64,000 nt of DNA from NCBI GenBank assembly GCA_040390045.1, contig JAZJZC010000001.1, forward strand, positions 36,345 through 100,344, in the 5' to 3' direction. This DNA is from Patescibacteria group bacterium (GTDB taxonomy: Bacteria; Patescibacteriota; Minisyncoccia; Phycocordibacterales; SIBU01). Position numbers and translations under genes: made by a program. Positions 7,517-40,684 of the stretch are shown here, piece by piece (position 1 is the first letter of the stretch; each line of letters starts with the position of its first letter). The notes below the pieces were generated by a model. The model did not search any database. It saw only the letters and a list, made by a program, of their open reading frames with translations, and was not told the DNA's origin.

Positions 7517-7530
7517 ACCTGAAAAAAGGA

Positions 7531-7558: not shown

Positions 7559-7740
7559 GGAAAATAAAATTATTGGATGTACATCATGGCATAGGCCACA
7601 ACACAAACTAGCAGAGCCACTCCGACAGCCTTTGAGCTAAATCGGACTGACCTACACCTGCCAACTCTCGATCTTCTACTCATACCAGCCGACACAATAC
7701 CATATTTCGACTTGATTAGCAAACCGCCTGATCCCGCTCA

Positions 7741-8679: not shown

Positions 8680-9226
8680 AAAATTTGGTTAATTGATATA
8701 AGAACATTGTATCCCAAACCCGGCAAATACTCTAATATATTCCATCAATGAAAAACCACCGCGGGAAGGGGTGGTTTGAGAGACTTAAGGGTTTAAATGT
8801 ACCCACAAGGTACAGAAAAAGAAAAGGAGAGAAAGTACTACGGCCACTGCTACTACCAACCCCTCCGGAGAAGCCTTCGATTGGTGTATAGGCGGTGGTT
8901 TGTTTTTCCCGTGCGGGAACAAGGATGGGATGGAACTACTACTGTGCCATTCCCTTTGGACTCGATGGACCACAAGGTTATCCTTTCACATTTACTATCG
9001 CGAACAATAGCACGTAATTAAAAATAACAAAACAACTTGCATTTAAGTAATCTTTTGGTGTATTATCTAATCATCACCAACGGAAAAGATCACCCCACAA
9101 GGTTTCGTCCTTATGGGGCCTTTTCTTTTCTATTTTTCAAAATTAGATTTTAAACTCTACGACCCTACGATTCGCTTGGCTGGCTCATCTCAGGATCTTC
9201 GAGTTTAAATTTAACCTCTAACGAGA

Positions 9227-10324
9227 TTAAATCTTAAACTCTACGACTTCTCCATCTTTGACCACGTACTCCTTACCTTCAGTGCGAATCAAACCTTTTT
9301 CGCGCGCGGCGGCGTAGGAACCAACTGCCAAAAGCTTGTCCCATTCGATCACCTCAGCTCGAACAAATTTATCTTTAAAATCTCCGTGGATTGCAGTTCC
9401 GGCCTCAGGAGCAGTCCAACCTTTTTTTATTGTCCATGCGCGAGTTTCATCTTCCCCAGTTGTAAAATACATAATGAGCTCAAGCGTCTCGTAACCTTTT
9501 TTGATGAGTCGGTCAATGCCGTCATCGAGCACGCCGAAATCCGTCCGCATTTGTTTTTTTTCTGCGTCTTTCATATCTTTCAAATCATGTTCTATGCCCG
9601 CGTCAACAATAACCCACGGGGCTTTTTCTTTCGCTAAAAAATCCATTAATTTTTGAAATCGTTCGTCTTTCAATTCATCTAAATTTTTACCGCCAGCTTT
9701 TTTATTGAGTACATATAAAATTTTCTTTACCGTAAGCAAGTGTAATCCTTTAAGAACTGGAATTTCTTTAGAATCCACAGCAACAGTTGAGGCCAATTTG
9801 CCCGCATCCAACGCAATTTTTATCCGCTCGAGCAAACCTCCTTCAAGCATTGCATCTTTATCTCCACGCTTGACGTCGCGCGCCAAATTAGAAAGTCGCT
9901 TCGTAACTGTTTGTAAATCAGCCAAAATAAGTTCGAGATTGATCACTTCAATATCTCGCACCGGATCAATTCCACCTGAAACATGAATGACTTTTTCATC
10001 GTCGAAAATCCGCACCACTTGCGCAATGGCGTCGGTCTCACGAATGTTGGAAAGAAATTGATTACCCAGCCCCTCGCCTTCCGAAGCTCCTTTGACGAGG
10101 CCCGCGATATCAACAAATTCCACCGCCGCAGGAACAGTTTTTTTTGAATGACTGAATTCAGAAAGTTTCCAAAGTCTATCATCGGGTACAGCAACCACGC
10201 CGACCGATGGATCGATGGTGCAAAAAGGATAATTTTCACAAGCCACTGATTTTTTAGTCAGGGCGTTAAAAAGAGTTGATTTTCCTACGTTTGGCAAGCC
10301 GACAATTCCAATTGAAAGTGACAT
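9227..10324 (-). CDS. ychF: Ribosome-binding ATPase YchF (Obg-family GTPase)
   Basis: GIVGLPNVGKSTLFNALT P-loop, DIAGLVKGASEGEGLGNQFL, TGS-like C-terminus. Start is placed at MSLSIGIVG. Confidence 0.85.
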   Translation of the reverse strand: MSLSIGIVGLPNVGKSTLFNALTKKSVACENYPFCTIDPSVGVVAVPDDRLWKLSEFSHSKKTVPAAVEFVDIAGLVKGASEGEGLGNQFLSNIRETDAIAQVVRIFDDEKVIHVSGGIDPVRDIEVINLELILADLQTVTKRLSNLARDVKRGDKDAMLEGGLLERIKIALDAGKLASTVAVDSKEIPVLKGLHLLTVKKILYVLNKKAGGKNLDELKDERFQKLMDFLAKEKAPWVIVDAGIEHDLKDMKDAEKKQMRTDFGVLDDGIDRLIKKGYETLELIMYFTTGEDETRAWTIKKGWTAPEAGTAIHGDFKDKFVRAEVIEWDKLLAVGSYAAAREKGLIRTEGKEYVVKDGEVVEFKI

Positions 10325-10408
10325 AGGAAAGAGTATATAGCACTGGTACGTAATATCCAAGAAACAGAAAATTAATTTTCTGCCCGGAAAAAATTACGAG
10401 AGACGCAC

Positions 10409-13400
10409 CTACTGAGTCGTGCTTGTTGCCGTGGTAGTCGAAACGTCAGCGTGCGAAAACAAACTCACAATCCAACGCCAAGGTTTGAGAATAATTGAAC
10501 CGGCAAAGTTTCTGAGGCCTTCGAAGATATTCTTAGGTGATGTTGTACTTGCTGTATCATCTGCAACCGTAGAAGAAGAATTTGAACTATCGTCACTAAC
10601 GGTGGTCGCTGGTACCGTTCCTGTAGTGTTGGCGGAAAAAATATTGGTTTTTCCTGCATCAACTGTTTTTGTTGGATTGTAGGCGTTTCCCCAAAGGGTA
10701 CTCAACATCATCGCTCTGAAATCATTGATTTCAATTTGTTCCGCAACCGTAACAGGAAATGGTCGCTGACAGTAAATTTCGTTTACTTTTTTCTTGGTTG
10801 TGATGTAAGTAAATTCAGTTGGTCCAGGAAGCGCCCATGGTGCCAAGATATCATCCCAATATTTTACTTGGAAGGCATCCACACCAACAATAGTTGGATC
10901 ATCGTAGATTCCAGTGATTTGTAGATCCTTCATGCCTTCAAAATCTCGAAGGAAGACCTGCAATTTTCGGACTTCAACTGGATTATTGTTCCAGCCTTTT
11001 TTCAAGTGATCGTACAAGTAGTAACATACGCCTGGTGTAACGGGAGTCGATGAAGCAAAGGCTCCTAATACAACGCCGTTTACAGGTCCTACGTTAATTG
11101 GAACCGGTGGGCCGTTGCTACCTCCTCCGCCCCCACCACCTCCCCCTCCTCCACCGCCACCTCCACTTGTGCCTCCACAATTAGTACATGGAGCTGGATT
11201 TACTGTGAATGAAACACTTGAACCGTTGTTTGTTGAATCGGTATCAGTTTGAGATGAACTTGCGTTTGCAGAGTTAGTAATAGTTGTACTTTCGGTGCCG
11301 AGTTTAACTTTGGCTTTCAAAGTAAGGCTCGTACTTGAACCGTTAGCCAAGTTTCCAACCGTCCACAGGCCAGTGGTTGTACTGTAGCTACCAATAGAAG
11401 TACTTGCGGAAATAAATTCCAATCCTGCAGGTAACACGTCAGTGACTGAAACTCCTGTCGAAGAAAGTGTTCCGAGGTTCGTTAATACGAGAGTGTAAAT
11501 AATTTCATCGCCAACGCTCGCTGTGGTTTTGTTAGAAGTTTTGGTAATACTCAAGTTGACACCTCCACCTCCACCACCGCAGTTCGAAGTACAACCAGGT
11601 GTGTTTACAGTAAATGATACGGCTCCAGTATTGTTTGTCGAATCAGTATCAGTTTGTGTTGAACTGGCGATAGCGGTGTTGGTAATAGTTGAACCTTCGG
11701 TTCCCGCTTTTACCTTAGCTTTCAAAACTAAAGTTGTAGTTGAGCCATTCGTCAAATTTCCGATAGTCCAAAGACTGGTTGTGGTGCTGTAACTACCGAG
11801 CGATGTGCTGGCGGAAATAAATTCCACACCGGTTGGCAGAATATCGCTCAAAGAAACTCCTGTTGAAGAAAGTGTTCCGAGGTTTGTCAGTACAATGGTG
11901 TAGATAACTTCATCACCGACATTTGCCGTAGTTTTATTGGCAGTTTTTGTGACACTCAAGTTAACGCCACTGGTTCCTCCGCCACCACAGTTTGAAGTAC
12001 AGACGACTGGATTTACGATGACGTTCACTGTCGCGGTGTTGTTTGAAGAATCGGTATCAATTTGAGTTGAAGTCGCCGCTGCAATGTTGCCAATAGTGAG
12101 GCCTTCGTTCCCTGCCTTTATTGTAGCTTTCAAAATAAGGGTCGTGGTTGCATTTTTCGCCAAATTTCCAATGGTCCAGAGTGAAGTTGAGGTGCTGTAA
12201 CTACCAATACTCGTGCTCGCTGAAACAAATTGCAACTGCGATGACAAAACATCAGTGACAGAAACTCCGGTTGCGGCATCTGGCCCAGCGTTTGAAACAG
12301 AGATCGTGTAGGTGACTTGATCGCCGACATTAGCGTTTGTTTTATCAGCAATTTTGGTAAGACCGAGGTTAACACCAGAAATTGGAACTGGAACAACGAT
12401 AACATTTCGCGTAACTGAAGCACTCAAACCTCCCGAGTCAGTGACCGTGTAGGTGAGTGTGTACGTGCCAAGCGTGCTCGTGCTGACAGTTCCGGTAACC
12501 ACAATTTGTGATGTGAGATTGCCATCTTCGAGGTCAGTGGCAGTAGCTCCGGGATCGGTAAAGACATGACCCAAGATAACAGTGATTGGATTGGCACCGA
12601 CAAGCGTAATAACCGGCGCGGTGTTTGTTGGTGGATTAACTGGACCATTAGGACAGGTAGAAGCGGTTGTGGTGTACGAATAGGTTACCGCAACGGAACT
12701 TGAAGCGGTAAGCAAAGGGAAATAACTGTAGGGGCCGGTAGTAAAATCTCCTATCAAATTGAGAGTTGAGAAAGATTGTCCTGAAACATCTTCGGTAACA
12801 TTTACACCACCGGTTGTCGTGCTAACGAAACTTAAAAGTTCTGTTGGGTCAGTAATCGTCAACAAGGCATCACTTTGAGAATATGTGCTTGTGCCAGTAC
12901 CGTATGAACTTGCGCCAGCATAATCGAGCGCGCCATCGGCGGCATTAACTGTAACTGGACCGAAGTAACTGGTGAAATATAATTTTGATAGATGTCCCGG
13001 CACACTAAACGTGCTGGTCGCCAAAAGACCGCCAGAAATTGAAATCGGGTGGGTAGCAATGTTCTCTACCTTTTGATTGATATTTGCCTCAGCGTAGTGC
13101 TTGAGAGAAAGAGAAGTCAGAGTTCCAAGAGCAGGATCGAAATATTTAATTTTTCCTTGCTTGGTAAAATCAGCCTTAGTTGTTGGGAAAATTAAAGTGT
13201 CAGAGTATTGGCAGGAAATTGGAGCAGGAGGTGGAGGCGGCAAAGGATTACAAACAGCGTTAATCTCCGCATCTCCATCGTTTAACATACTACCTCCACC
13301 TAAAGCAGAAATATATCGGAAGGCCTGTGGAAACAACCAAATGGTTGTGTCGTTGTCAGAAATCCAGTTTGTTGGGCCATCAGGGTAGGTTCCAATTTCT

Positions 13401-14449
13401 ATACCAGAAGTCCAAGGACCAGCTGGACTATCGGAACCAAAAAGGGCACCCTCGTGAGCTTCGTTTGGAGTTTCTCCGTGGTCAATAGATGGAACAAGAT
13501 AGACCATGTTGCTACTGGTTGCAGTAGTAGTTCCCATATCCCAAACTCCCCTTCCTGGATAACCACTAAATCCTGCAGGATTGCTAAACACCTGAACCCA
13601 TTTATGATCGATAAAATCTCCGGAATGTGGATCGCTGTTGTATACCCAATCATAAGCAGTAGGACTGGTTTCCTCACCAGTTACCATTCCCGTAGTGAGA
13701 AGAACTCCACAAGAACCGATATTCAAGGTTGTTGGTGCGGTTGGGCAAGGAGCAGTGCTGGTGAAAGAATAAGTTACTACAACAGAATTCGAAGCATAGA
13801 TCAAAGGAAAATAACTCCATGGTCCTGAAGGAGTGCTTGAAGCGATGTTGAGGAATGAGAACGACTGACCGGAAACATTTTCGGTAATATCAACGCCACC
13901 AGCACCAGAATTAACATAATTTAAAAGTTCAGCAGGATCGTTGATTGCAATCGAGGTATCGTTTTGAGAAAAAGTTGTGGTACCAGTGTCGTACGAACTT
14001 GAACCAGCATAATCGAGAGCTCCATCGTACGCGGTTATGTCGACTGGACCGAAATTACTAGAAAAAAGCAAATTTGAAGTATGTCCTGGAAGACTCAATG
14101 TGCTGGTTGCACTGAGGCCACCACCACTTGAAATTGTATGATCAGAGACGTTTTCTGCCTTCTGGCTTACATCAACGATAGAAATGTGCTTGATAGAAAG
14201 ACTTGTGAGAGTACCGAAGGCGGGATTAAAGTACTTGATTTTTGCCTGCTGTGTAAAATCAGCCTTCGCAACGCCGAAAACAATGGTGTCAGAAAGCTGA
14301 CAGGAATTGCTTGTTGTCGTTGCCGCACGTACAAGGAGGTTTGAAGATGGCACAGCCAAAATCATTAGGGACAAAAACATGACGAAAAGCGATGTGGTGA
14401 TTTTTTTCTTGAGATTGCTGATCTTGCTCGTTGATAAATATTTTTTCAT
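10409..14449 (-). CDS. Giant secreted cell-surface protein: signal peptide, two duplicated ~190-aa N-terminal domains, an Ig-like domain, three tandem DUF11 repeats, a poly-Gly linker, and a C-terminal PG_binding_1-like domain
   Basis: N-terminal hydrophobic signal. GVNLGLTKIADKTNANVGDQVTYTISVSNAGPDAATGVSVTDVL... repeated three times (DUF11). GGGGGGGGGGGGGGGG linker. C-terminal VRKLQVFLRDFEGMKDLQITGIYDDPTIVGVDAFQVKY resembles a peptidoglycan-binding domain. Confidence 0.85.
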   Translation of the reverse strand: MKKYLSTSKISNLKKKITTSLFVMFLSLMILAVPSSNLLVRAATTTSNSCQLSDTIVFGVAKADFTQQAKIKYFNPAFGTLTSLSIKHISIVDVSQKAENVSDHTISSGGGLSATSTLSLPGHTSNLLFSSNFGPVDITAYDGALDYAGSSSYDTGTTTFSQNDTSIAINDPAELLNYVNSGAGGVDITENVSGQSFSFLNIASSTPSGPWSYFPLIYASNSVVVTYSFTSTAPCPTAPTTLNIGSCGVLLTTGMVTGEETSPTAYDWVYNSDPHSGDFIDHKWVQVFSNPAGFSGYPGRGVWDMGTTTATSSNMVYLVPSIDHGETPNEAHEGALFGSDSPAGPWTSGIEIGTYPDGPTNWISDNDTTIWLFPQAFRYISALGGGSMLNDGDAEINAVCNPLPPPPPAPISCQYSDTLIFPTTKADFTKQGKIKYFDPALGTLTSLSLKHYAEANINQKVENIATHPISISGGLLATSTFSVPGHLSKLYFTSYFGPVTVNAADGALDYAGASSYGTGTSTYSQSDALLTITDPTELLSFVSTTTGGVNVTEDVSGQSFSTLNLIGDFTTGPYSYFPLLTASSSVAVTYSYTTTASTCPNGPVNPPTNTAPVITLVGANPITVILGHVFTDPGATATDLEDGNLTSQIVVTGTVSTSTLGTYTLTYTVTDSGGLSASVTRNVIVVPVPISGVNLGLTKIADKTNANVGDQVTYTISVSNAGPDAATGVSVTDVLSSQLQFVSASTSIGSYSTSTSLWTIGNLAKNATTTLILKATIKAGNEGLTIGNIAAATSTQIDTDSSNNTATVNVIVNPVVCTSNCGGGGTSGVNLSVTKTANKTTANVGDEVIYTIVLTNLGTLSSTGVSLSDILPTGVEFISASTSLGSYSTTTSLWTIGNLTNGSTTTLVLKAKVKAGTEGSTITNTAIASSTQTDTDSTNNTGAVSFTVNTPGCTSNCGGGGGGVNLSITKTSNKTTASVGDEIIYTLVLTNLGTLSSTGVSVTDVLPAGLEFISASTSIGSYSTTTGLWTVGNLANGSSTSLTLKAKVKLGTESTTITNSANASSSQTDTDSTNNGSSVSFTVNPAPCTNCGGTSGGGGGGGGGGGGGGGSNGPPVPINVGPVNGVVLGAFASSTPVTPGVCYYLYDHLKKGWNNNPVEVRKLQVFLRDFEGMKDLQITGIYDDPTIVGVDAFQVKYWDDILAPWALPGPTEFTYITTKKKVNEIYCQRPFPVTVAEQIEINDFRAMMLSTLWGNAYNPTKTVDAGKTNIFSANTTGTVPATTVSDDSSNSSSTVADDTASTTSPKNIFEGLRNFAGSIILKPWRWIVSLFSHADVSTTTATSTTQ
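11270..12385 (-). repeat. Three ~360-bp nucleotide-level tandem repeats encoding the DUF11 modules of the surface protein
   Basis: Near-identical stretches (e.g. ccaatagaagtacttgcggaaataaattccaa / ccgagcgatgtgctggcggaaataaattccac) recur at ~360-bp spacing. Coding, not CRISPR. Confidence 0.7.
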
Positions 14450-14559
14450 AAATTTTTCAGGTGAGATTATTAAATTAGACTAGTGCAATTAAAAAAAATG
14501 TCAATTGTTTTTGATCAAATAAAGATAGAAATAGCTTTGAGATTAGGCCTATAATCACG

Positions 14560-14680
14560 ATTGTCCTTTAAAATAGAGATTGGTGTCCTTTATAGAACTC
14601 CTTCCGATGTGTATGCCGTTCGATCATATAAAATATTACATAAAGGACATTTCAGTTTGTCTAGTGTCCTTTATAAATTT
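14560..14680. promoter_or_regulatory. Four GTCCTTTA(TA) boxes (one inverted) 110-230 bp upstream of the giant surface-protein gene
   Basis: ttgtcctttaaaat, gtgtcctttataga, taaaggacat (inverted), gtgtcctttataaa. Candidate operator array. Confidence 0.45.
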
Positions 14681-14770
14681 ACTGAAAGTGTATGGAACAC
14701 ATTTATAAATTTTGTCAATCATCTCAGAAATTGCTACAACTAGTTTTTTGGTCAAAAGTTACAATGTGCA

Positions 14771-14805
14771 ACAAAAAATGCCACAGATGTGGCATTTTTC
14801 TTTTC
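14771..14805 (-). terminator. Bidirectional intrinsic terminator downstream of the 14832-15422 gene
   Basis: aaaatgccac-agat-gtggcatttt, flanked by an A-run and a T-run. Confidence 0.75.
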
Positions 14806-14831
14806 TTTGGGAGTTCGACTTCCAAGCAGCG

Positions 14832-15422
14832 CTAGTACGCTCTTCTTCCCCACTTTTCAAATCTTTCTTTCCATCGTTTGACACCGTCTTCTTTTATAAA
14901 TTTAAGCGGTCCGACTTTCTTCACGTGGACCTTAAATCCAGCGAACCAAAGAATGCACTTCTTAATTTCATTCGTAGTGTCACCGAACAAAATACGAGCT
15001 AAGAATGGATTTGAATCTGAAGTGACAAAAACTCGGGCGGTCTTTTTTTTCATGAGCTTACTCCAAAAGTAGCCCGCTCCCATGCCGCTTGATTTGAACT
15101 GAAAAGCAAAATGGGGTAACCAGATTCGATCAAAAAATCCCTTGAGAAGTGCTGGCATGGTTGACCACCAACTTGGGTAAAAAATAACAAAATGCTCTGC
15201 CCATTTTATATCTTCTTCTGCTTTGATTAAATCTGGTTCAAGCGCTTGAATCTCCCGATAACCCTTGTGGAGAATTGGATCGAACTTAATATCACCGAGG
15301 TTAGTCCTTCGTACCTCGTGACCCGCCTCTTTTGCCGCCTTTTCGTATGTATCAGCAAACGATCCGCACAGCATCTCCTTGTCAGGATGACCGAGCAGTA
15401 TAAAAATCTTTTTGGATTTCAT
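14832..15422 (-). CDS. NAD(P)H-dependent quinone oxidoreductase, flavodoxin-like fold (Flavodoxin_2 / NQO-KefF-MdaB type)
   Basis: KIFILLGHPDKEMLCGSFADTYEKAAKEAGHEVRRTNL...FDRIW pattern of the flavodoxin_2 family. Confidence 0.7.
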   Translation of the reverse strand: MKSKKIFILLGHPDKEMLCGSFADTYEKAAKEAGHEVRRTNLGDIKFDPILHKGYREIQALEPDLIKAEEDIKWAEHFVIFYPSWWSTMPALLKGFFDRIWLPHFAFQFKSSGMGAGYFWSKLMKKKTARVFVTSDSNPFLARILFGDTTNEIKKCILWFAGFKVHVKKVGPLKFIKEDGVKRWKERFEKWGRRAY

Positions 15423-15433
15423 AATTTATAAGG

Positions 15434-15658
15434 TTATTTTTGCAAATTCTCGAGCTCTGCTTTGTGGTTTGTCATTACTTCCATCGCCGCATCCATCTCA
15501 CTTTTGCCGGTTTTAATTTTTTCTTTAATTTCCTCGGCCACTTTCATAAAAAAATCAGGGTTTTTCTCAACCATAAGTAACAACTTCTCCTGGGTTTCTT
15601 TCGGAACATCCTTGAGCTTCGACTGAAGCATCTTTTTCATTAAAAATTCTTTAAGCAT
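15434..15658 (-). CDS. Small hypothetical protein (74 aa), lysine/glutamate-rich helical
   Basis: ORF only. Sits inside a same-strand cluster between two redox genes. Confidence 0.4.
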   Translation of the reverse strand: MLKEFLMKKMLQSKLKDVPKETQEKLLLMVEKNPDFFMKVAEEIKEKIKTGKSEMDAAMEVMTNHKAELENLQK

Positions 15659-15716
15659 AGTTCAATGTGAATTACTAATACCTTAAGTTTAACAAAAGCT
15701 AGCCTGTTGCGCGACC

Positions 15717-16433
15717 TTACTCTGAGTAGCCAGTGAATTCATCGGTTCTGATATTTTCATCAGATATGTTGAGCTCCAACAAAATTTCTCGAATTCGAAC
15801 AATAAAAGGGATCGGACCTGAGATGTAAAACGACTGTTCACCTGGGTTTTTGATAAAGGACATTAGAAACTTCTTATCCAGCCGGGGCTTGATTGTTTTT
15901 TTTGTAGAACTTTTTGCAGTTTGTAGGGCTGTGAATGAAAAATTTTTATGCTGCTTAGCGTAGGATAAGAAATCATCTAAAAAAACTGCCGATGTATCGT
16001 GCCTGTAGGAATACATAAAGATAATATTCCGATCCTCATTCTTAAAAAAGGCTTCCTTCAAAATACTGGCAAAAGGCGTGACACCGATCCCTGCCCCAAT
16101 AAAAACTAAGGGCTTTGAAAGAGTTTCTCTCAGAAAAAAGGTACCGAACGGTCCCTCTAGTTTCACTCGCTGACCAACTCGAAAAGAGAAAAGCAGCTTT
16201 TTAAAATCACTTTGAGTATTTTTGGTAACAATATAGATTGTCTTTTCGTGAGGAGCTGAAGAGAGTGTAAATGTTCTTGTGAGATTCTGACTCTCTAAAC
16301 CTTTTGGCAGAGGAAGCGTGAAGTCTGCACACTGACCGGCTTTGTACTTGAAACCCTTTGGCTTTTCAAAAACAAAACAGGTCGCATCTTTTGCAATTTC
16401 TTTTTTTTCAATTAGTCGAATTCGGTAGGACAT
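15717..16433 (-). CDS. Ferredoxin-NADP reductase-superfamily oxidoreductase (FAD-binding plus NAD(P)-binding domains)
   Basis: RTFTLSSAP (RxYS-like FAD motif), GPFGTF, VFIGAGIGVTPFASIL NAD(P)-binding glycine motif. Confidence 0.7.
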   Translation of the reverse strand: MSYRIRLIEKKEIAKDATCFVFEKPKGFKYKAGQCADFTLPLPKGLESQNLTRTFTLSSAPHEKTIYIVTKNTQSDFKKLLFSFRVGQRVKLEGPFGTFFLRETLSKPLVFIGAGIGVTPFASILKEAFFKNEDRNIIFMYSYRHDTSAVFLDDFLSYAKQHKNFSFTALQTAKSSTKKTIKPRLDKKFLMSFIKNPGEQSFYISGPIPFIVRIREILLELNISDENIRTDEFTGYSE

Positions 16434-16466
16434 AACTTTAGAGTAAATAAAATCTAACCTGCTGGA

Positions 16467-16600
16467 TGCAATTCGAGGCGCAAACGATTTTGCGACTAAA
16501 ACGTAGGTCGCGCTTCAATGGACGTTGCGCGACACGATTCCGACTGAATCGACATTGCGGAAGCAAACGGAGCTGGCGACAATGAAATGCGCCAAAGGCG
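16467..16600 (+). ncRNA. Candidate structured RNA element, copy X1 (paralog of 36519-36670 and 49132-49283)
   Basis: ~85-90% identical to the X3 core over the first 100 nt. Conserved hairpins gtcgcgc-ttcaatggacgtt-gcgcgac and cgattc-cgact-gaatcg. It lies between two minus-strand genes and abuts the ABC transporter stop codon. Confidence 0.45.
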
Positions 16601-16606
16601 GATGTT

Positions 16607-18412
16607 CTACTCTTGGATGAAACCACCAGCTTGAAGATTCCACAACTTAGTATACAAACTCGCGCTGTTCTTCAGTAAATCATCATGACTTCCCTCCTCA
16701 ATCACCTTTCCTTTCTCAAGCACAATAATTCTATCCATTTTTCGAATGGTTGAAAGTCGGTGAGCAATGACAATAACTGTCTTACCTTTCATCAGTTTAT
16801 CGAGCGCATCTTGAATAAGAGACTCGGAGTGAGAATCGAGACTTGAGGTGGCTTCATCAAGAACTAAAATCGGTGCGTTTTTAAGGATAGCTCGAGCAAT
16901 TGCCACGCGTTGACGTTCCCCACCAGAAAGCTTAATGCCACGCTCTCCGACATACGTGTCGTATTTTTGCGGCAACCCAAGCGCAAACTCATCACAATGC
17001 GCCAATCGTGCCGCTTCGTACACTTCAGCCTCGCTCGCCTCTCTTCGTCCGTAGCGGATATTTTCAAGAAGGGTTCTGTGAAAAAGAATCGGATCTTGTG
17101 GCACCAAACTGACATTTTTTCGTAAACTTTCCTGCGTAACATTTCGAATCTCCTGCCCATCAATTGAAATTCCCCCAGCGGATACATCGTACAGACGGAG
17201 TAACAATTTTACGAATGTTGATTTACCCGCGCCAGACGGGCCGATCAAAGCCACCTTCTCCCCTGCGGCAATTTTTAGATTTAAACCTTGGAGAACAATC
17301 TGTTCGCCGCCGAAAGAAAAATCAACATTATGAAAGTCGACTGAACCTGAGGGAACAGAAAGTATGCTGGCATCTGCCGCATCCAAAATGTCCTGCGGCA
17401 ACTTCAAAATATCAACCATTTCCTTGGCATCGGCAATCGATTCGTACATACTGCGAATAATTCTACTGATGCCCCAGAGCTTACCGTTGAGTCCTAACAA
17501 ATAGACTTGGATCAAGACAAACGAGCCGACAGTTATGGCTCCGGTCTGCCAATATTTGATGGCAAAATAGAATAACAAAAATTCAATGAAAATAAGTAGA
17601 AGTGCTTGCCCTGTTTCCACGCCATTTTGCAGGTTCCAGGCAAATCGTGTCAATCGAGCTTGCTCATTGGTCACTTCGCGAAAATATTTTGATTCGGATT
17701 TCACACCCGTAAAAAGATGAATGGTGTTTTGATTTGTGATGGCGTCAGCCAAAACACCTGTCGTAAAGGAGTCCATAGCGGCACGTTTGACATCATATTT
17801 TAATTTCCAACGGGAAAAAAGATAATTAAAAAGCAAAAATACAAAAACCCAAGCGAGCAAAACTTCAGTAATGATGTGGCTGGTAAACCAAAGTACGAAA
17901 CAGATGCCGATCACCTGCACCACGAGTGGCAAAATTTCATAGACAATTCTATCCTGAAAAACCTCGAAGGCCCGGGCAAAACGGTTGACGCGCTGAACCA
18001 AAGAGCCGGTAAAGTTGTTGGCATAAAAAGAGTAGGAATGATTGATCATGTACTCAAAAGCTTGCTGACGCAGTCGGGCAATGACTCTCGAATCGCAATA
18101 GGAGGAGGAGAATGTGGCAATGCGCCACCCTACCCACTGGATGATATTTAAAACCAAGATAAGAAAGATGATACTAAATAATTGTGGACTTTTATCGGAA
18201 ACGGAGAGAGTGCCGAGATTTAGAACATCGAAGAAATTCTTATAATAAATAGGAATGACAACTGACACAGCGTTGGCAAAAATCGCGCTCGAAAAAATTA
18301 TGAAAAGCGAAAGTTTGTTTGGCCGAAGACCACGCCAAAAAGCCTTGAGTACATCGAAGGTTGTAGCAATCCCGGTGCCCTTATGTTTAGGTTTCGTGTC
18401 GAAGGCTAGCAT
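16607..18412 (-). CDS. ABC exporter, fused permease/ATPase (MsbA/ABCB-type)
   Basis: Six-TM N-terminal domain, GPSGAGKST Walker A, LSGGERQRVAIARAIL signature, ILVLDEATSSLD Walker B. Confidence 0.9.
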   Translation of the reverse strand: MLAFDTKPKHKGTGIATTFDVLKAFWRGLRPNKLSLFIIFSSAIFANAVSVVIPIYYKNFFDVLNLGTLSVSDKSPQLFSIIFLILVLNIIQWVGWRIATFSSSYCDSRVIARLRQQAFEYMINHSYSFYANNFTGSLVQRVNRFARAFEVFQDRIVYEILPLVVQVIGICFVLWFTSHIITEVLLAWVFVFLLFNYLFSRWKLKYDVKRAAMDSFTTGVLADAITNQNTIHLFTGVKSESKYFREVTNEQARLTRFAWNLQNGVETGQALLLIFIEFLLFYFAIKYWQTGAITVGSFVLIQVYLLGLNGKLWGISRIIRSMYESIADAKEMVDILKLPQDILDAADASILSVPSGSVDFHNVDFSFGGEQIVLQGLNLKIAAGEKVALIGPSGAGKSTFVKLLLRLYDVSAGGISIDGQEIRNVTQESLRKNVSLVPQDPILFHRTLLENIRYGRREASEAEVYEAARLAHCDEFALGLPQKYDTYVGERGIKLSGGERQRVAIARAILKNAPILVLDEATSSLDSHSESLIQDALDKLMKGKTVIVIAHRLSTIRKMDRIIVLEKGKVIEEGSHDDLLKNSASLYTKLWNLQAGGFIQE

Positions 18413-18492
18413 AGAATCACTATTTTACTTCGTTTTTAAGGAAAAGACAAAAGAAAAACCGCGCGGTATGTCGAGCGGCTACAGAAAAGTAA

Positions 18493-18846
18493 TTACGTCT
18501 TGCAACGTAGACGACTCAAGGTTTCAAGGACTTCTTCCCGCAGATAACGCTCTTCCCAATCTTGATAAAAATGAGTGCCTGTTACAACCGTAACACCGAG
18601 ACTTAGGATGACACCGGAAAGTTCAGCAAAATCGGAAAGGTTTTGAAACCGCAACTTCATTAGTTCCGACACCAGAAAAAACATTGAGGTGCACAGGAGC
18701 GAAAAGAATCCCGCAGTTAGAACAATCTCTGCCCACCAGTCCTTTTCAGCCTTTTTACGCTTGGCGAGCCGATAATCGAAATAGCCCCAAACGTAACAGT
18801 ACGCAAGCACTAGACCACATGCCAAAGAAAGTTTTAAAAGAAGCAT
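18493..18846 (-). CDS. Small membrane protein (hypothetical, 117 aa)
   Basis: Three hydrophobic helices. ORF only. Confidence 0.45.
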   Translation of the reverse strand: MLLLKLSLACGLVLAYCYVWGYFDYRLAKRKKAEKDWWAEIVLTAGFFSLLCTSMFFLVSELMKLRFQNLSDFAELSGVILSLGVTVVTGTHFYQDWEERYLREEVLETLSRLRCKT

Positions 18847-18958
18847 AACGAAAATCTGTGTACTTCTGTCACACTACAAGAAAATTGATCTGGGTGCAAC
18901 AACTCCGACTTGCACAGATACGAAGAAGCCTGCCACTGGGCAGGTTTCTTCTGTTCAG

Positions 18959-19029
18959 TGGACCTAGGGGGAATCGCACCCCCGCCTCGTCAATGCGAAT
19001 GACGCGTCGTACTACTAGACTATAGGCCC
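18959..19029 (-). tRNA. tRNA-Ala (anticodon CGC)
   Basis: RC reads GGGCCTATAGTCTAGTAGTACGACGCGTCATTCGCATTGACGAGGCGGGGGTGCGATTCCCCCTAGGTCCA. Anticodon loop TTCGCAT, G3:U70 Ala identity pair, T-loop GTGCGATTC. CCA is not encoded. Confidence 0.85.
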
Positions 19030-19045
19030 AAATTGGACATAGGAA

Positions 19046-19074
19046 ATAGTAACAATTTCTTGTTGACGTATCAA
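19046..19074 (-). promoter_or_regulatory. Sigma-70-like promoter candidate for tRNA-Ala(CGC): TTGATA-N17-TACTAT, 16 nt ahead of the tRNA 5' end
   Basis: Read on the minus strand: ttgatacgtcaacaagaaattgttactat. Confidence 0.4.
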
Positions 19075-19089
19075 ATTGAGAAATTTTAT

Positions 19090-19300
19090 TATTTGTGTAT
19101 CACAAATATTTTGCTTGCCGTCGCAAGCAAAATTTCGCGACCCCCGGCTCGCCATCGCTCAAAGGTTTTTTGCATGTGTATCACAAGTATTTTTCCTGAC
19201 GGAAAAATCTCGCGATCTTTTTTCAACATCGTGTATCACGAATCACTAAGTAAATCGCTTCGCAAGGCCTCGCAATTTACGTAAGTGTTCGCGAAGTCTC
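19090..19300. repeat. Three tandem repeat units in the spacer between the two tRNA-Ala genes. Each unit is a TGTGTATCAC box, a small hairpin, then a TCGCGA box
   Basis: tgtgtatcacaa at 19094, 19175 and 19231. Hairpins gcttgccgtcgcaagc and tcctgacgga. TCGCGA(c/t) at 19133, 19210, 19277 and 19288. Position is reminiscent of upstream activator sites ahead of stable-RNA promoters. Confidence 0.5.
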
Positions 19301-19364
19301 GCGACACTCGTTGCTACTCGCCCGCTCGACATTTCGTCTGCTGACAAAATATTTCTGCGGCTTC

Positions 19365-19412
19365 CACTGATAGCAAAAAACCTCCAGCAGTGGAGGTTTT
19401 TTGCTATCAGTG
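19365..19412. terminator. 48-bp perfect palindrome (22-bp arms) acting as a bidirectional terminator just 3' of tRNA-Ala(TGC)
   Basis: cactgatagcaaaaaacctcca-gcag-tggaggttttttgctatcagtg. GC core cctcca/tggagg, with a U-run on either strand. Confidence 0.7.
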
Positions 19413-19483
19413 GACCCAAGCGGGCTCGAACCGCTTACCTCCTCATTGCAAATGAGGCGCTCTACCAGATGAGCTATGGGCCC
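19411..19483 (-). tRNA. tRNA-Ala (anticodon TGC)
   Basis: RC reads GGGCCCATAGCTCATCTGGTAGAGCGCCTCATTTGCAATGAGGAGGTAAGCGGTTCGAGCCCGCTTGGGTCCA. Anticodon loop TTTGCAA, G3:U70, T-loop GGTTCGAGC. Confidence 0.9.
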
Positions 19484-19529
19484 AATTTAAACAAAAGTAC
19501 AAATTCGACTAAAACCTAACTCCAAGATA

Positions 19530-20486
19530 TTACCCTCTACGCGAGCTAAGCGCAAGTTTGATTGAATGGTCAAGAAAACCCTCGAGAGAGAGCCCTACGG
19601 AATCTATTGATTTCCCAAATGCTGAATCGGGCGATAGGCTTGGCAAAGTATCTACACCCAAAAAATAAATTCCACGAGTTGGAGATACGACAAAGTGCGA
19701 CTGTGAGTAATGCCGGAGACCTAGTACCTCGTGAATTTTTTTTGCCATATCCTTAATTTTCATTTTTTCAATTTCAGAAAATCGACCGGGGCTAAAAATG
19801 TTTTCTACACTTCGATCGGTATCTTTACTAAAAACTAACTCCGCGGGCAACAAAGAATACAAAGCGTCCCCACGATACTGTTCCAGTATTCCGCATGCCG
19901 CTTCCCTACCAGCAACAGATTCTTCGATAATAATTTCTGGAGAAAATTCGAAAGCTTTAGAAAGCGCAGACTTCAAATCGGAAAAAATTCTTACGATAGA
20001 AACTCCGGCTGTGTTTGACACTGCAGGTCGTATCAGCGATGGATTGGTAATACTTTTCCAGATATCGAGAAGACTCATCGTATCAATGATCTCTTTTTTA
20101 AAAATCTTATACACCGGCATTCGGATTCCCTGACTCTTTAAAATATTTTTTTCATGACCTTGGTGGTTTGAAAATAATGCGGCGAGATGACCAGAGCCAG
20201 TATACGGAATATTAAAAATATCGAGGGCTCGTTGTAACTTCAAATCTTCTCCTGACTCACCATGGGTTGCGTTGAAAATAACATCGATTTTTTTGAAAGC
20301 ATTTACTGGATCTATTGCCACACCATGAATATGCCAAACCCCGGCCTGATCAATAAAAACATCAACAGGAGCGTAATTTTCAGGCAAACTCTTTAAAACC
20401 TGTGAGCCGGTTTTTAACGAATGGTGGTGTCTCTTGGATTTACCTCCGCGAACAACCCCAACTCGGATTTTTGATCGAGATGCCAT
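19530..20486 (-). CDS. ddl: D-alanine--D-alanine ligase
   Basis: KIRVGVVRGGKSKRHHHSLKTGSQV... N-terminal Ddl pattern, ATP-grasp core, C-terminal catalytic region. Confidence 0.75.
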   Translation of the reverse strand: MASRSKIRVGVVRGGKSKRHHHSLKTGSQVLKSLPENYAPVDVFIDQAGVWHIHGVAIDPVNAFKKIDVIFNATHGESGEDLKLQRALDIFNIPYTGSGHLAALFSNHQGHEKNILKSQGIRMPVYKIFKKEIIDTMSLLDIWKSITNPSLIRPAVSNTAGVSIVRIFSDLKSALSKAFEFSPEIIIEESVAGREAACGILEQYRGDALYSLLPAELVFSKDTDRSVENIFSPGRFSEIEKMKIKDMAKKIHEVLGLRHYSQSHFVVSPTRGIYFLGVDTLPSLSPDSAFGKSIDSVGLSLEGFLDHSIKLALSSRRG

Positions 20487-30777: not shown

Positions 30778-30835
30778 AAATACGAAATACAAATCAATAC
30801 AAAAGTACAAATAGTGAGATTCGTATATTCGTACC
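30778..30835. repeat. ATACGAA/TTCGTAT repeat element (copy C) in the divergent promoter region
   Basis: aatacgaaatac...attcgtatattcgtacc. Confidence 0.55.
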
Positions 30836-30861
30836 AAATTTGTATTTTGTATTTATAAGCT

Positions 30862-36989: not shown

Positions 36990-38240
36990 TTACAGCTTCA
37001 AGCTTCTCTCCCCCATTGCTTCCGTAATCCTTCCAATGCCGATCGCAAACGCCGCATCACGAAGCGAAATTTTCTTAGCACAAGCCATCTGCCAAACCGC
37101 CTTAAAACTATTGACCATAATTGGCTCGAGTCGCGCCCGCACTTCTTCTGCCGTCCAATAATAATTTTGAACATTTTGCACCCATTCAAAGTAACTCACC
37201 GTCACGCCGCCAGCGTTTGCCAACACATCTGGAATTAAAAATACCTTTTTTCGACTCAAAATTTCGTCAGCCTCTGGAGTAGTTGGGCCATTCGCTAGTT
37301 CTACAATAATTTTTGCCTTAATCTCTCCTGCGTTTCCAACATGGATCACCCCGTCAAGCGCCGCCGGAATAAGCACATCACAATCCGAGACAAGCAATTC
37401 TTCATTTGAAATATTTTTTGCTCCCTTAATTGCAACATCTTTAAACGAACCTTTATCGTGCTTTACTCTCTCAAGTTGTTCAACATCAAATCCCACAGAA
37501 TTATATATTCCGCCGTGACTATCAGAAATCCCAACAATGACATACCCAGCTTTTTGTAAAATTTTCGCCATCGTTCCACCCGCATTACCAAAACCTTGAA
37601 CGATCACCCGCAAACCTCTCTCCTTCATGCCAAGGGCTTTCACCAACTCGCGTAACACAAATGCTCCGCCGTCTGCCGTTGCGGTATCCCTTCCCAAACT
37701 TCCACCGAGCGAAAGTGGTTTGCCTGTGATTAATCCCGGTTCACTTTTACCGGTATTTTTTTCAAACTCATCTAAAATAAATGCCATAATCTGACCGTTG
37801 GTATAGACGTCTGGCGCAGGAATATCCTTGTTAGCGCCAATGTATGGAGTCATCACTTTTGCCCAAGCTCGAGAAATTTTTTCGATTTCATTTGGGCTCA
37901 ATTTTTTAGGGTCACAGACCACACCTCCCTTCCCGCCTCCGAGCGGAATCCCAACCACTGCGCATTTGACCGCCATAGCCGCCGCCAAAGCTTTCACTTC
38001 ATCGAGGTCAGCATCAGGATGAAATCGAATTCCCCCTTTGTACGGCCCGCGAGCATTATTAAACTGCACACGATAGGCTTGAAAGGTTTGTTTCTTGCCA
38101 CTGTCCATCGTTATTGAAATCTTTTTATCCAGAATTCGATTTGGGGTGGTTAATTTTTTAATAAATTCTTTCGGCAACCCGAGCAACTTTACCGATTTCT
38201 CCACATTGACCGAATAATTCTTAAACGGAGTTTTTTTCAT
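36990..38240 (-). CDS. gdhA: Glutamate dehydrogenase (Glu/Leu/Phe/Val dehydrogenase family)
   Basis: GGGKGG catalytic glycine-rich motif (PLGGGKGGVVCDP), NAD(P)-binding GFGNAGG. Confidence 0.9.
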   Translation of the reverse strand: MKKTPFKNYSVNVEKSVKLLGLPKEFIKKLTTPNRILDKKISITMDSGKKQTFQAYRVQFNNARGPYKGGIRFHPDADLDEVKALAAAMAVKCAVVGIPLGGGKGGVVCDPKKLSPNEIEKISRAWAKVMTPYIGANKDIPAPDVYTNGQIMAFILDEFEKNTGKSEPGLITGKPLSLGGSLGRDTATADGGAFVLRELVKALGMKERGLRVIVQGFGNAGGTMAKILQKAGYVIVGISDSHGGIYNSVGFDVEQLERVKHDKGSFKDVAIKGAKNISNEELLVSDCDVLIPAALDGVIHVGNAGEIKAKIIVELANGPTTPEADEILSRKKVFLIPDVLANAGGVTVSYFEWVQNVQNYYWTAEEVRARLEPIMVNSFKAVWQMACAKKISLRDAAFAIGIGRITEAMGERSLKL

Positions 38241-38340
38241 GGTTTTTAGTTTGTAGTTCTTAGTTTTTAATTTTTAGTTTTAAACTTTAAATTTTCCTGC
38301 CACACAGTATAGAACAAATCTTCTTTGCAATCTATTACAA

Positions 38341-38372
38341 ATAAAAAACCGCCCTGGATAAATCCAAGACGG
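38341..38372 (-). terminator. Intrinsic terminator (minus) downstream of the DAHP synthase gene
   Basis: ccgtcttgg-atttat-ccagggcgg (two G-U pairs) followed by tttttt. Confidence 0.55.
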
Positions 38373-38385
38373 CTATGCAAAAAGA

Positions 38386-39465
38386 TCAACGATTACCTAA
38401 TGCGTCGAAAAGCTCCTTAATCAAATCGTGAGACCTTCCCAGACCGTCACAACTATCGGTGATGGAAACCCCGCTCTCAATAGTTGGCTTCTGTCCCGAA
38501 CGAATGACAATTTTCTGGCTACCGTCGAGCAGATTACTCTCGTATAGCCCGCCAAAAATTGGCACACCCGAAGCTACTTGATTTGCTACTGACCGGCAAA
38601 CTTCAATCTGCGCCTTGTGATCTTTACCTGAATTGGCGTGACTAAAATCAACCACCAAACGAGGGGACAAACCTTGCGCAGTTAGGGCGTGCTGAGCTTC
38701 AGCCACCTGCTCCGGACAGTAGTTCGGACCATGATGTGTGCCTCGAAGGATCAGGAATCCGTCGGGATTACCTGTGGTTTCAAACTTGGCCATAATGCCG
38801 GAATCAGACACGGCAGGCAATGAGTGCGAGGTCTTTGCAAACGCCAAGGAATCAAGCGCCGGCTGCAACGGTCCGCTAATGGGGTTTTTGAATCCCACGG
38901 GGCACGAAAGCGCACTGGCCACCTGTCGCAATTGCTGATTGGTCACCTCTCGGGCGCCAATCCAGTACAGCGAGTAGAGATCATCAAACCTCTGCTGACC
39001 CGGGATATCGTTGTATTCCGTGGCGATCGGAATTCCCAACTCAGACAAGTCCAGTGCAAGCCGACGCCCCTCTCGCCAACCTTTCTCAATATCATAACTA
39101 CCGTCAAGATCAGGATCGGACCAAAACCCAGTCCAATCTGGCTTGGTGCGCGGCTTACTGAAACAGAGCCGCATCATGAAGAAAATCCTCGAACCAAATT
39201 TCTTCTGCAGCACGGAGAGCCATCGGCCATACTCCAGGCAATCCTCAGTGGAGTGTACAGAACACGGCCCGAGAACAAGCATGAAGCGCGGATCAACTCC
39301 ACGCAGGATTCTTTGCCCGATTTTCCTGGCGGTGCCGATTGTTTTCCAAGCCTTTTCAGTCATCGGCAAGTCAGCTTTGAGCTGCGCCGGCGAAGGTAGG
39401 GGGTGCTCACTGCGGATACGGATGTTGGTCATTCGAGCAACACGGTGACGTAATTGAGTACTCAT
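38386..39465 (-). CDS. 3-deoxy-7-phosphoheptulonate (DAHP) synthase, class I alpha (AroG/F/H type), GC-rich relative to the background
   Basis: Aligns along its whole length with E. coli AroG (LVLGPCSVHS, KPRT, SCPVGFKN, IDFSHANS). GC ~53-55% against ~38% in the flanks. Confidence 0.85.
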   Translation of the reverse strand: MSTQLRHRVARMTNIRIRSEHPLPSPAQLKADLPMTEKAWKTIGTARKIGQRILRGVDPRFMLVLGPCSVHSTEDCLEYGRWLSVLQKKFGSRIFFMMRLCFSKPRTKPDWTGFWSDPDLDGSYDIEKGWREGRRLALDLSELGIPIATEYNDIPGQQRFDDLYSLYWIGAREVTNQQLRQVASALSCPVGFKNPISGPLQPALDSLAFAKTSHSLPAVSDSGIMAKFETTGNPDGFLILRGTHHGPNYCPEQVAEAQHALTAQGLSPRLVVDFSHANSGKDHKAQIEVCRSVANQVASGVPIFGGLYESNLLDGSQKIVIRSGQKPTIESGVSITDSCDGLGRSHDLIKELFDALGNR

Positions 39466-39755
39466 AATTTGTTAGTTATTCAGTTGTCAAAAATCTGCTT
39501 TTGTTTTCGGAAACTTCAGATTTGAGCGAATTGCGCCAAACATGAAGTTACCTAAAACAAAACGAGTCTGGGTTACATTCCAGAGCTCGTTTCTAATATC
39601 GTTGGAGAGAAGCTTTAACGATAGCAGGAATCAGCTCTGGACGCAGTGCCCCAGAAGCCAAAGAAAAAGAAGTTGCTATAGTTATTGCCCGATTTCATAT
39701 TCGCCATATTACACAACGGTTTACAAAATGTCAACAAAGGTTCTGACTCCCCTCC

Positions 39756-39862
39756 GATACGAAATGCGGGCCAACGAAAATACGAAATTATACGAAAACC
39801 GTAGCGACGGTAAAAAGTTTTCGTATTTTTTCGTATTTTCGTACCCTTTCGTATGTTCGTAT
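39756..39862. repeat. ATACGAA/TTCGTAT repeat element (copy B), an ~90-bp imperfect palindrome centred on ccgtagcgacgg, in the DAHP synthase promoter region
   Basis: gatacgaaatgcgg...cgaaaatacgaaattatacgaaaacc | ttttcgtattttttcgtattttcgtaccctttcgtatgttcgtattt. Confidence 0.7.
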
Positions 39863-40684
39863 TTACCTCTCCTTGTAATAGACCTTATTCCCAAACCTCA
39901 AATCAACATATTCAACGTTTTTAAAAACTTTGCCATCGCTAAATTCACTACTTACCAAAAGTGTTTGAAAGTTTTTCAAAACTAAAGAAAAATCAGCGTC
40001 GCGGGCAAAAATAATTTTCTGACCTCCGGAAAAATCAGCCTCAAAATCTAAATCAGGGCGTTCTCGAAAAGCTGTCACCTTAAACCCTGCGCTTGAAAGT
40101 TGTTCAGCAAAATCTAACAGTTTTTTAAAATAATCAGGCGAAACATATTGCAATTTCATCGGTTCCGCTTTTTCTTCGGCAGAATAGAATGTAATAAATT
40201 CGAGTGACGTATCTTCCATTTGGTAAAACGGACTAAAAATTAAACCGGTGTCATCCAAAAAGTAACACTGTTCCGGTTTTCCCTGACACCACAAAGCTTT
40301 GGGGCTTCGCTCGATGACACTGACCGTAATGGCGTGAGAATTTTTATAGCTAACCCCAACATGAGCGACCTGAGAATACGAATCAAGAATAGTTGATTCT
40401 ATTTTTTTGGCCGGATAGAAAAAAATATTTGATTTCGGAATCGTGAAAAAATATCGTCCCTGTAAAAATCCTTCCGTCGTTGACGCAATGTCTGCAGTTG
40501 CGAGGGACGTGGCTCCGACCACTTCAACATCAGAAATGGTAATAAAATTAAGACCTGATAGATAATAGACTGAGCCCCACAAGCCACCGAAAAAAAAGAC
40601 CGCGAGAATTATTCTACCGATAATCACCTTGCGGCGTTTCGCTTTTAGACGCGCGGATTTTAGATTGTATGTTCTGCCATTCAT
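39863..40684 (-). CDS. Cell-division protein FtsQ/DivIB-like (N-terminal TM plus POTRA)
   Basis: Basic N-terminus, one TM, then ISDVEVVGATSLATADI...GRYFFTIPKSNIFFYPAKKIES resembling a POTRA domain. Confidence 0.5.
   Translation of the reverse strand: MNGRTYNLKSARLKAKRRKVIIGRIILAVFFFGGLWGSVYYLSGLNFITISDVEVVGATSLATADIASTTEGFLQGRYFFTIPKSNIFFYPAKKIESTILDSYSQVAHVGVSYKNSHAITVSVIERSPKALWCQGKPEQCYFLDDTGLIFSPFYQMEDTSLEFITFYSAEEKAEPMKLQYVSPDYFKKLLDFAEQLSSAGFKVTAFRERPDLDFEADFSGGQKIIFARDADFSLVLKNFQTLLVSSEFSDGKVFKNVEYVDLRFGNKVYYKER

Follow-up and report, generated by a model that had tools for sequence, protein, structure and literature searches.

Three TACGAA arrays in a Patescibacteria genome are probably gene-less copies of a compact selfish element with a GxxExxY nuclease gene

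Short intergenic repeats associated with a small gene are known from several systems. Miniature inverted-repeat transposable elements (MITEs) are short, gene-less, multi-copy, intergenic and insertion-polymorphic sequences that break short-read assemblies and share their inverted arms with autonomous parents. Repetitive extragenic palindromic (REP) units form intergenic palindromic doublets, the bacterial interspersed mosaic elements (BIMEs) or REPINs, often located just past stop codons and within operons, and also flank one small nuclease-type gene, the REP-associated tyrosine transposase (RAYT). The heptad arrays of the omega (ω) repressor of inc18 plasmids and the ends of Mu, Tn7 and Tn402 are composed of several short direct or inverted sites, each occupied by one protein unit. 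Intervening sequences in 23S ribosomal RNA (rRNA) are selfish, horizontally acquired insertions with one small open reading frame (ORF) and inverted repeats that pair into a stem, as in Coxiella burnetii, where a 428-nt sequence carries S23p and is excised by RNase III (PMC4990558). Here we analyze a 64,000-nucleotide stretch of a Patescibacteria group bacterium (contig JAZJZC010000001.1 of assembly GCA_040390045.1; hereafter the window) and report three intergenic hexamer arrays that are probably ORF-less copies of a compact selfish genetic element carrying a GxxExxY nuclease gene.

The original prediction described forward ATACGAA units followed by inverted TTCGTAT units in three intergenic places, and the sequence reads so at all three coordinates. 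The heptamer is in excess, with 23 ATACGAA matches on both strands together compared to 8.12±2.71 in 100 dinucleotide-preserving shuffles (maximum 15, none reaching 23), and 15 of the 23 matches are held by the three arrays. Clusters of TAC[GA]AA units (at least 3 units in 40 bp) occur exactly three times in the window, each intergenic and each with forward units first and reverse units after:

2391-2527: cluster 1 of TAC[GA]AA units, four forward then four reverse
30781-30851: cluster 2 of TAC[GA]AA units, four forward then four reverse
39722-39861: cluster 3 of TAC[GA]AA units, four forward then five reverse
2386-2530, no strand assigned: array 1, probable ORF-less element copy; nhmmer match 2387-2500, E = 2.1e-19, to a model built without the window copies
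30778-30856, no strand assigned: array 2, degenerate copy with 4+4 units; marginal match to the family model, E = 0.05
39755-39865, no strand assigned: array 3, best-preserved probable ORF-less copy; nhmmer match 39755-39865, E = 1.5e-23

Array 1 follows a 343-aa Sigma70_r4/HARE-HTH gene, 10 nt past its stop codon (2541), and precedes the greA start codon by 78 nt. Its forward units are positioned at 2390, 2411, 2418 and 2428 (the last a TACAAA), the loop spans 2435-2457, and the reverse units follow at 2459, 2469 and 2492, with a degenerate unit at 2476 and an extra unit at 2522 past a 23-nt interruption. Array 2 is flanked by a 55-aa ORF and LOG, the two genes diverging, and is formed by the forward units ATACGAA, ATACAAA, ATACAAA and GTACAAA, a tagtgaga loop, and the reverse units TTCGTAT, TTCGTAC, TTTGTAT and TTTGTAT. 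Five of these eight units are the TACAAA/TTTGTA variant, which is also the arm motif in one clade of ORF-carrying elements. Array 3 directly adjoins the stop codon (39863-39865, 0 nt gap) of an FtsQ-like gene and lies 290 nt from the DAHP synthase start codon, with forward units at 39757, 39780 and 39790 (and an incomplete ACGAAA unit at 39774), a loop at 39800-39816 holding the small hairpin CCGTagcgACGG, and reverse units at 39820, 39830, 39838, 39848 and 39856; a Logan contig with an identical FtsQ-like gene ends inside this array. The predicted regions stand, with the second corrected to reach ~30856 and to consist mostly of the variant unit. Their description as upstream of greA and DAHP synthase is likewise correct as to the start codons and needs amending as to the arrays' closer neighbors, the upstream stop codons. 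Pfam upholds the GreA, LOG and DAHP synthase annotations, and the DAHP synthase gene is GC-rich as described (52%, versus 43% for the window). Gene content and the source names attached to identical proteins place the window in a Patescibacteria MAG close to 'Taylorbacteria'.

The window copies belong to a repeat family shared among genomes. A total of 22 copies from the window and a related metagenome-assembled genome (MAG), CAYHDB01, align as a single family with common spacer sequence, three of them in the 64-kb window and at least 19 from the examined loci of the MAG. A family hidden Markov model (HMM) made from the other genome's copies matches arrays 1 and 3 over their full length and array 2 marginally, and has no further match in the window. 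ORF-less copies measure 60-140 bp and have no coding capacity, and conservation across alignment columns is concentrated in the hexamers, at 94% versus 63% in the remainder of the interior (Mann-Whitney p = 4e-12). We scanned one genome per GTDB species (596 Gb) for the strict three-unit pattern ATACGAAA-N1-3-ATACGAAA-N10-40-TTTCGTAT and recovered 79 loci versus ~0.4 expected by chance under a uniform-base estimate. About two thirds of these loci are labeled Patescibacteria and are spread over many lineages, with a minority in Acidobacteriota, Bacteroidota, Planctomycetota and Clostridia; the same pattern had no match in viral contigs. The 79 loci contain 95 clusters with a common layout of ~4 forward and ~4 reverse hexamers about a variable loop of 3-30 nt, and the arm spacing in these clusters is mirror-symmetric and lineage-specific. 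Rfam searches, at gathering scores and at permissive E-values, returned only generic hairpin noise.

The same arms flank GxxExxY genes. The full element is ~470 bp and consists of ~4 forward hexamers, a ~131-aa GxxExxY gene and ~4 reverse hexamers. A search of the GTDB loci for solitary arms bracketing a gene recovered one such locus, L026, in which the family HMM matches both flanks of the ORF (E = 4.5e-20 and 2e-12) and the inner pair of forward units is duplicated beyond the ORF. A second locus, L052, was found later by tblastn and has the order rpsL, ORF-less array, rpsG, left arm, 142-aa ORF, right arm, fusA, with the arms round the GxxExxY ORF identical to the ORF-less copy 500 bp off. 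The two ORFs score 92.5 and 66 bits against TIGR04256 (cut-off 35), and the L026 ORF, the one covered by the Pfam scan, matches PF13366 (PDDEXK_3) at 73 bits. We then scanned metagenomes with a seed consisting solely of peptide patterns of GxxExxY proteins, blind to the arms, and obtained 80 loci with 43-68% identity. Among the 75 loci with both flanks, 61 have two or more occurrences of a hexamer ahead of the gene and two or more of its reverse complement behind it, compared to 0 of 69 control windows. In raw counts, the sequence just upstream of these genes has 226 ACGAA and 19 TTCGT, and the sequence just downstream has 29 ACGAA and 220 TTCGT.

In the metagenome elements the modal layout is 4+4 units and the ORF always lies exactly between the arms, with a median of 5 nt from the last forward unit to the start codon and of 1 nt from the stop codon to the first reverse unit. 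ORF-less arrays occur within 1.5 kb of ORF-carrying copies in 11 cases. The spacers between hexamers of ORF-carrying copies are just 60% complementary. At the fourth base of the hexamer, 57 elements have G, 8 have A (a single protein clade) and 7 have T, which originated several times independently. The 4+4 TACGAA arms recur about the GxxExxY gene of a Bacteroidia MAG, an element that may explain part of the spread across phyla. GxxExxY relatives are nearly absent from viral contigs, where we found 3 distant matches. One of these viral contigs (L177 860-1500, IMG/VR) encodes a distant relative with 31% identity that has GGAT(T) units upstream and AATCC/ATCC units downstream, a single case that hints at arm motifs differing between GxxExxY clades.

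A survey of PD-(D/E)XK proteins lists the GxxExxY/PDDEXK_3 family as 'Unknown', with multiple transfers (PMC3424549). Residues E35 and Y38 of the GxxExxY motif and D74, E84 and K86 of the D...ExK motif are invariant in 94 homologs, and the AlphaFold model adopts a PD-(D/E)XK fold with a predicted local distance difference test (pLDDT) score of 92. The protein is likely an active nuclease, since its catalytic residues are invariant and the fold is predicted with confidence. Structure searches returned generic PD-(D/E)XK matches only, including Cas4, tRNA-splicing endonuclease, lambda exonuclease, an archaeal Holliday-junction resolvase and a homing-endonuclease domain, and revealed neither a close structural match nor a sequence relative with a solved structure.

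We next examined where the arrays sit. They lie 0-14 nt past a stop codon in ~45 of 64 cases and occur between co-transcribed genes (groES-[array]-groEL and rplR-[array]-rpsE), after rpsO and between pilus genes, with often just 8-12 nt left to the next start codon within operons. An array is carried by 17% of tandem, 12.5% of divergent and 4% of convergent gaps (three-way chi-square p = 0.05), and gaps with a downstream gene start carry one in 16% of cases versus 4% for convergent gaps. No recurrent regulator or transposase gene was found near the arrays, and the neighbors are diverse housekeeping genes. In the 23S rRNA of a Jorgensenbacteria genome (L064), a canonical 4+4 array occupies the tip of a 146-nt helix insertion, and three further related 'gatactaat…TACGAA' palindromes lie in other insertions of the same molecule.

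Comparison of orthologous sites demonstrates that the window arrays are insertions relative to close relatives, with promoters conserved and arrays not. At the site past the 343-aa gene, two independent contigs (L091 and L092) that encode a 93% identical protein in the same greA synteny have no array, and their 131-nt spacer contains a TTGACT-17-TAGAAT promoter that is the counterpart of the window greA promoter. Canonical GC-hairpin/T-tract terminators occupy this site in L081, L083 and L084 (87%, 83% and 80% identical), an array is present in L062 (82% identical), and in another 82%-identical relative three forward units precede a canonical terminator. At the site past the FtsQ-like gene, L087 and L088 have 15-17 nt from the stop codon to a conserved TTGAC-type promoter and no array. 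The TTGACA-17-TAATAT promoter of the window is conserved in L087, L088 and L089, all of which lack a TACGAA array. Both window promoters lie beyond the arrays and not within them, and serve here as context:

2343-2371, minus strand: sigma-70-type greA promoter, TTGACT-17-TACAAT, outside array 1 and 19 nt beyond it; context, not part of the element
39706-39734, minus strand: sigma-70-type promoter of the unit downstream of array 3, TTGACA-17-TAATAT, 22 nt past the array; context only and outside the element

We therefore consider it probable that the three arrays are remnants or derivatives of the GxxExxY element. Elements occupy short gaps between housekeeping genes, usually right past a stop codon and occasionally at 23S helix tips, and loss of the ORF would leave both arms about a short loop as the 60-140-bp imperfect palindrome seen three times in the window. 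One route to ORF loss may be deletion between directly repeated inner units, and in L026 such a deletion between the direct repeats would give exactly an ORF-less array with its loop. The window copies could have arisen by non-autonomous spread, or they could be scars that full elements left on deletion, analogous to solo LTRs. The hexamers are putative binding sites of the element's own nuclease, with several subunits presumably docking on each arm, and the nuclease may use the two arms for spread or maintenance via excision and insertion or via homing. The window copies most probably have no dedicated host function, and their side effects would be a hairpin in read-through transcripts and displacement of the upstream flank of three promoters.

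The window, which covers 64 kb of a 323-kb contig, contains no GxxExxY gene, and its three arrays are therefore taken as ORF-less derivatives.

Several points weigh against the element reading. Binding or cutting of the TACGAA arms by the nuclease is an inferred step. We detected no target-site duplication, the longest direct k-mer shared by 14-nt flanks being equal to that of the shuffled control, with filled and empty sites too diverged to align, and we found no excision footprint. The GxxExxY ORF has no DDE, HUH or recombinase domain and no strand-transfer domain, which speaks against a classical cut-and-paste transposon, and a lone PD-(D/E)XK nuclease is not known to perform strand transfer by itself. 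Simple recognition of the hexamer base by base is made less likely by its fourth position, which switches between G, T and A, in some cases inside a single element and on several occasions without regard to the protein tree. No GxxExxY gene has been tied to the pattern hits in Acidobacteriota, Planctomycetes and Clostridia, and at least the Ruminococcus match looks like unrelated plasmid iterons. Finally, the ORF-less copies could be pre-existing homing targets instead of derivatives, which we regard as less likely and consider below. A broader proposal is possible and is offered tentatively, as one we would not yet bet on: GxxExxY (PF13366/TIGR04256) proteins would be the nucleases of an unrecognized class of very small mobile elements with nuclease-read hexamer-array ends, spreading without target-site duplication across Patescibacteria and other phyla and leaving ORF-less palindromes in housekeeping gaps and rRNA.

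The element family differs from MITEs, REP/RAYT systems and 23S intervening sequences in its protein family, its hexamer-array arms, its lack of target-site duplication and its minute size. The resemblance to MITEs includes all of the properties listed above, down to the sharing of inverted arms by gene-less and gene-carrying copies within a genome (L052 and L026, with 61 of 75 metagenome loci) and insertion polymorphism, observed here between the window and L091/L092, L081, L083, L084, L087 and L088. Unlike in MITEs and their parents, the gene encodes a ~131-aa protein of PD-(D/E)XK nuclease fold and not a known transposase, the arms are hexamer arrays and not a unique terminal inverted repeat, no target-site duplication is detected, and the full element is just ~470 bp. 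REP/BIME (REPIN) sequences and RAYTs are similar in organization and in placement, but RAYTs belong to the HUH Y1 transposases (PF01797) and REP units are individually imperfect palindromes, whereas here the protein belongs to PF13366 and the arms are direct hexamer arrays. ORF-bearing 23S intervening sequences match in length (~430-470 nt), in carrying one small ORF between inverted repeats and, through the ORF-less TACGAA copy of L064, in position at a 23S helix tip. In contrast to these intervening sequences, nearly all copies here lie between protein-coding genes, 0 of 80 ORF-carrying loci are in 23S, and the ORF encodes a GxxExxY protein and not the four-helix-bundle S23p. Arrays of the omega and Mu type differ in that no ribbon-helix-helix (RHH) or DDE protein accompanies the hexamer arrays. 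The MuA end-site consensus RYRCGAAAR even matches ATACGAAAA, a resemblance that offers a lead to how multi-site arms may be read and is no evidence of relationship.

Searches of the literature for the motif and for Patescibacteria together with REP or MITE returned nothing relevant, and no description of the arrays or of their association with GxxExxY was found in the searchable, incomplete literature, so an earlier description is possible. The arrays resemble a regulon signature, and reading them as probable element remnants averts a mis-annotation. For GxxExxY/PDDEXK_3, a widespread family, the association supplies a first concrete genomic-context clue to its role. The repeat also punctuates operons and even rRNA in Patescibacteria, whose ultra-small genomes it causes to break in assembly. 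Provided that the link between nuclease and array is true, the element would represent a new minimal selfish-element design and a possible source of small sequence-directed nucleases.

Among other explanations, the one that fares best, though we judge it unlikely, is that the copies are selected as functional RNA hairpins acting as terminators, mRNA 3′-end stabilizers or RNase III sites, with the repeat structure incidental. A long hairpin can form from every copy (-21 to -48 kcal/mol, z = -4.8 to -9.2), the position shortly past stop codons suits such a role, canonical terminators occupy the same spot in relatives, the L062 loop has a terminator-like hairpin followed by a T-run, and the rRNA helix-tip placement recalls the RNase III-excised 23S intervening sequences of Coxiella (PMC4990558). 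However, for 45 arrays in co-directional gaps the sense strand is the more stable in 19 and the antisense strand in 26 (p = 0.32), and the sense strand shows no enrichment of G·U pairs (61 versus 86). Variant units are left uncompensated in the partner arm, with 1 double versus 14 single changes, and arrays are depleted between convergent genes. The absence of RNA strand asymmetry, the absence of compensation and this depletion together indicate that constraint acts on the hexamers as DNA words, alike on both strands. The stems are moreover AT-rich, without the GC stem of the canonical terminators used elsewhere in the genome, and a pure hairpin model leaves the conservation of one hexamer across phyla unexplained. 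Hairpin formation may instead describe a side effect of the copies.

A quite unlikely alternative reverses the order of events, such that the palindromes came first, made or spread by a separate process, and GxxExxY is a free-standing homing endonuclease that recognizes the arrays and inserts at the palindrome center. Homing of this kind accommodates an ORF that invariably lies exactly between the arms, ORF-less and ORF-carrying copies with the same arms side by side, the absence of target-site duplication that homing by recombination predicts and, weakly, the homing-endonuclease catalytic domain among the fold matches. How the palindromes arose and spread has no explanation under this order, however, and L052 keeps an intact ORF-less copy 500 bp from its ORF-carrying copy, while the duplicated inner arm pair of L026 explains ORF loss by deletion.

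The original prediction left the choice between a small dispersed repeat element family and a multi-site operator for a global regulator. The former is supported, in that the arrays are full-length members of a multi-genome repeat family, that their presence varies between close relatives and that a parent form with a gene exists. The latter, in which clustered sites of a global host transcription factor would co-regulate greA, LOG, DAHP synthase and other genes, is very unlikely. It draws on the far better conservation of the hexamers than of spacers and loop, the ~10-bp distance between some units, the location of all three window copies just upstream of sigma-70-like promoters, and the higher frequency of arrays in gaps with a downstream gene start (16% versus 4%, from the three-way comparison with p = 0.05). 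Lack of conservation at orthologous promoters, the refuting condition set with the original prediction, speaks against an operator at both sites checked, as the arrays are not kept even beside a 93%-identical neighboring protein while the promoters are. The genes by the arrays share no function, being unrelated housekeeping genes and rRNA with no recurrent family and no recurrent adjacent regulator, and arrays lie inside operons 8-12 nt from the next start codon, within a 23S rRNA gene, and about a selfish-looking ORF in 61 of 75 loci. A protein that reads the hexamers remains likely, and the candidate is the element's own nuclease and not a host regulator.

Further candidates were rejected. 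An intrinsic terminator is disfavored by AT-rich arms without sense/antisense asymmetry, although some loops hold a small hairpin followed by a T-run; in a consensus terminator scan of positions 1-20000, which covers array 1 only, that array was not among the terminator-like sites. The L062 loop resembles the L083 terminator (TTTGGGAGTTTTTT) over a stretch that we judged too short to prove addition of arms about an existing terminator. Integron attC sites are excluded by TACGAA/TTCGTA units that are not GTTRRRY boxes, by the lack of an integrase and by copies that are dispersed rather than in cassette arrays. DNA-uptake sequences, attC, iterons or origins and parS-like sites do not fit a motif confined to intergenic palindromes, with no defining consensus or partner genes and a patchy distribution among relatives. 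A RAYT/Y1 transposase was considered because a Clostridia locus (L016) has a ATACGAAA pair beside a Y1_Tnp gene, but the Y1_Tnp gene of a Patescibacteria locus (L014) is flanked by unrelated hairpins. This last locus (L014 2700-3540, from a Parcubacteria MAG) encodes a RAYT-like Y1_Tnp protein of 222 aa with the hairpin ACTTCCAAGGTTGAACCTTGGAAGT on both sides and looks like a REP/RAYT-type unit apart from the TACGAA family.

Two groups of pattern hits outside Patescibacteria have their own character. In Ruminococcus MAGs (L040 2295-2614, L053 67-138 and L045 1531-1602), 3+3 gaTACGAAa arrays with 9-11-bp spacing separate a primase/helicase-like gene from a serine recombinase on an apparent plasmid or integrative element, and are probably iterons or a res-like site that shares the motif by coincidence. 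Acidobacteriota loci L003, L011, L012, L019, L046, L050 and L073 contain a distinct ~75-bp palindromic family, GCCTGCGAAAC-ATACGAAAG-ATACGAAAA…TTTTCGTAT-ATTTCGTAT-GTTTCGCAGGC, composed of (N)CGAAA units with 9-bp spacing at unrelated intergenic sites.

Variation in arm number was observed at individual loci. In a Magasanikbacteria locus (L056 3153-3466), the right arm with an 11-nt flank (a ~41-nt unit) is tandemly amplified at least 7 times beside an assembly gap, and a second site in the same locus (4033-4143) carries two right arms, indicating that element arms can expand in tandem. A one-armed variant in L094 (9740-9793, 11305-11368 and 14450-14502) has 3-4 forward TACGAA/TACAAA units with 'atactaat' spacers directly past stop codons and no reverse arm, with a canonical GC-rich terminator next in one case. 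Short-read contigs terminate in or beside an array in L001 (3519-3603) and also in L008, L041, L046, L057 and L060, consistent with the repeat breaking assemblies. The 23S rRNA gene of L064 (1070-6616) is 5.5 kb long versus 2.9 kb for the model; several of its helices carry large insertions, and it contains a LAGLIDADG-like ORF (2949-3515).

The surroundings of array 3 are themselves variable. In L089 (838-960) and L090, where the FtsQ-like protein is 60% identical, a different ~115-nt palindromic insert bounded by GGACCTGTGAAAT…ATTTCACAGGCCC occupies the array-3 site, and this intergenic spot past the FtsQ-like gene seems prone to palindromic insertion. Downstream of the TTGACA-17-TAATAT promoter, window positions 39466-39700 (minus strand) contain a conserved stretch, …agcttctggg…gtccagagctgattcctgctatcgttaaa…, that is also present in L087 (~10860-11100), L088 (~2570-2760) and L089 (~990-1130), with a terminator next in the relatives. 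This stretch could be a small RNA or leader and had no Rfam match at permissive thresholds. Immediately beyond it, the DAHP synthase gene and an adjacent 416-aa gene (36990-39465) have no counterpart in the L087 syntenic region, in which a 97-aa ORF, glutaredoxin and PMM come after the FtsQ-like gene, and the gene pair looks like a lineage-specific acquisition or loss.

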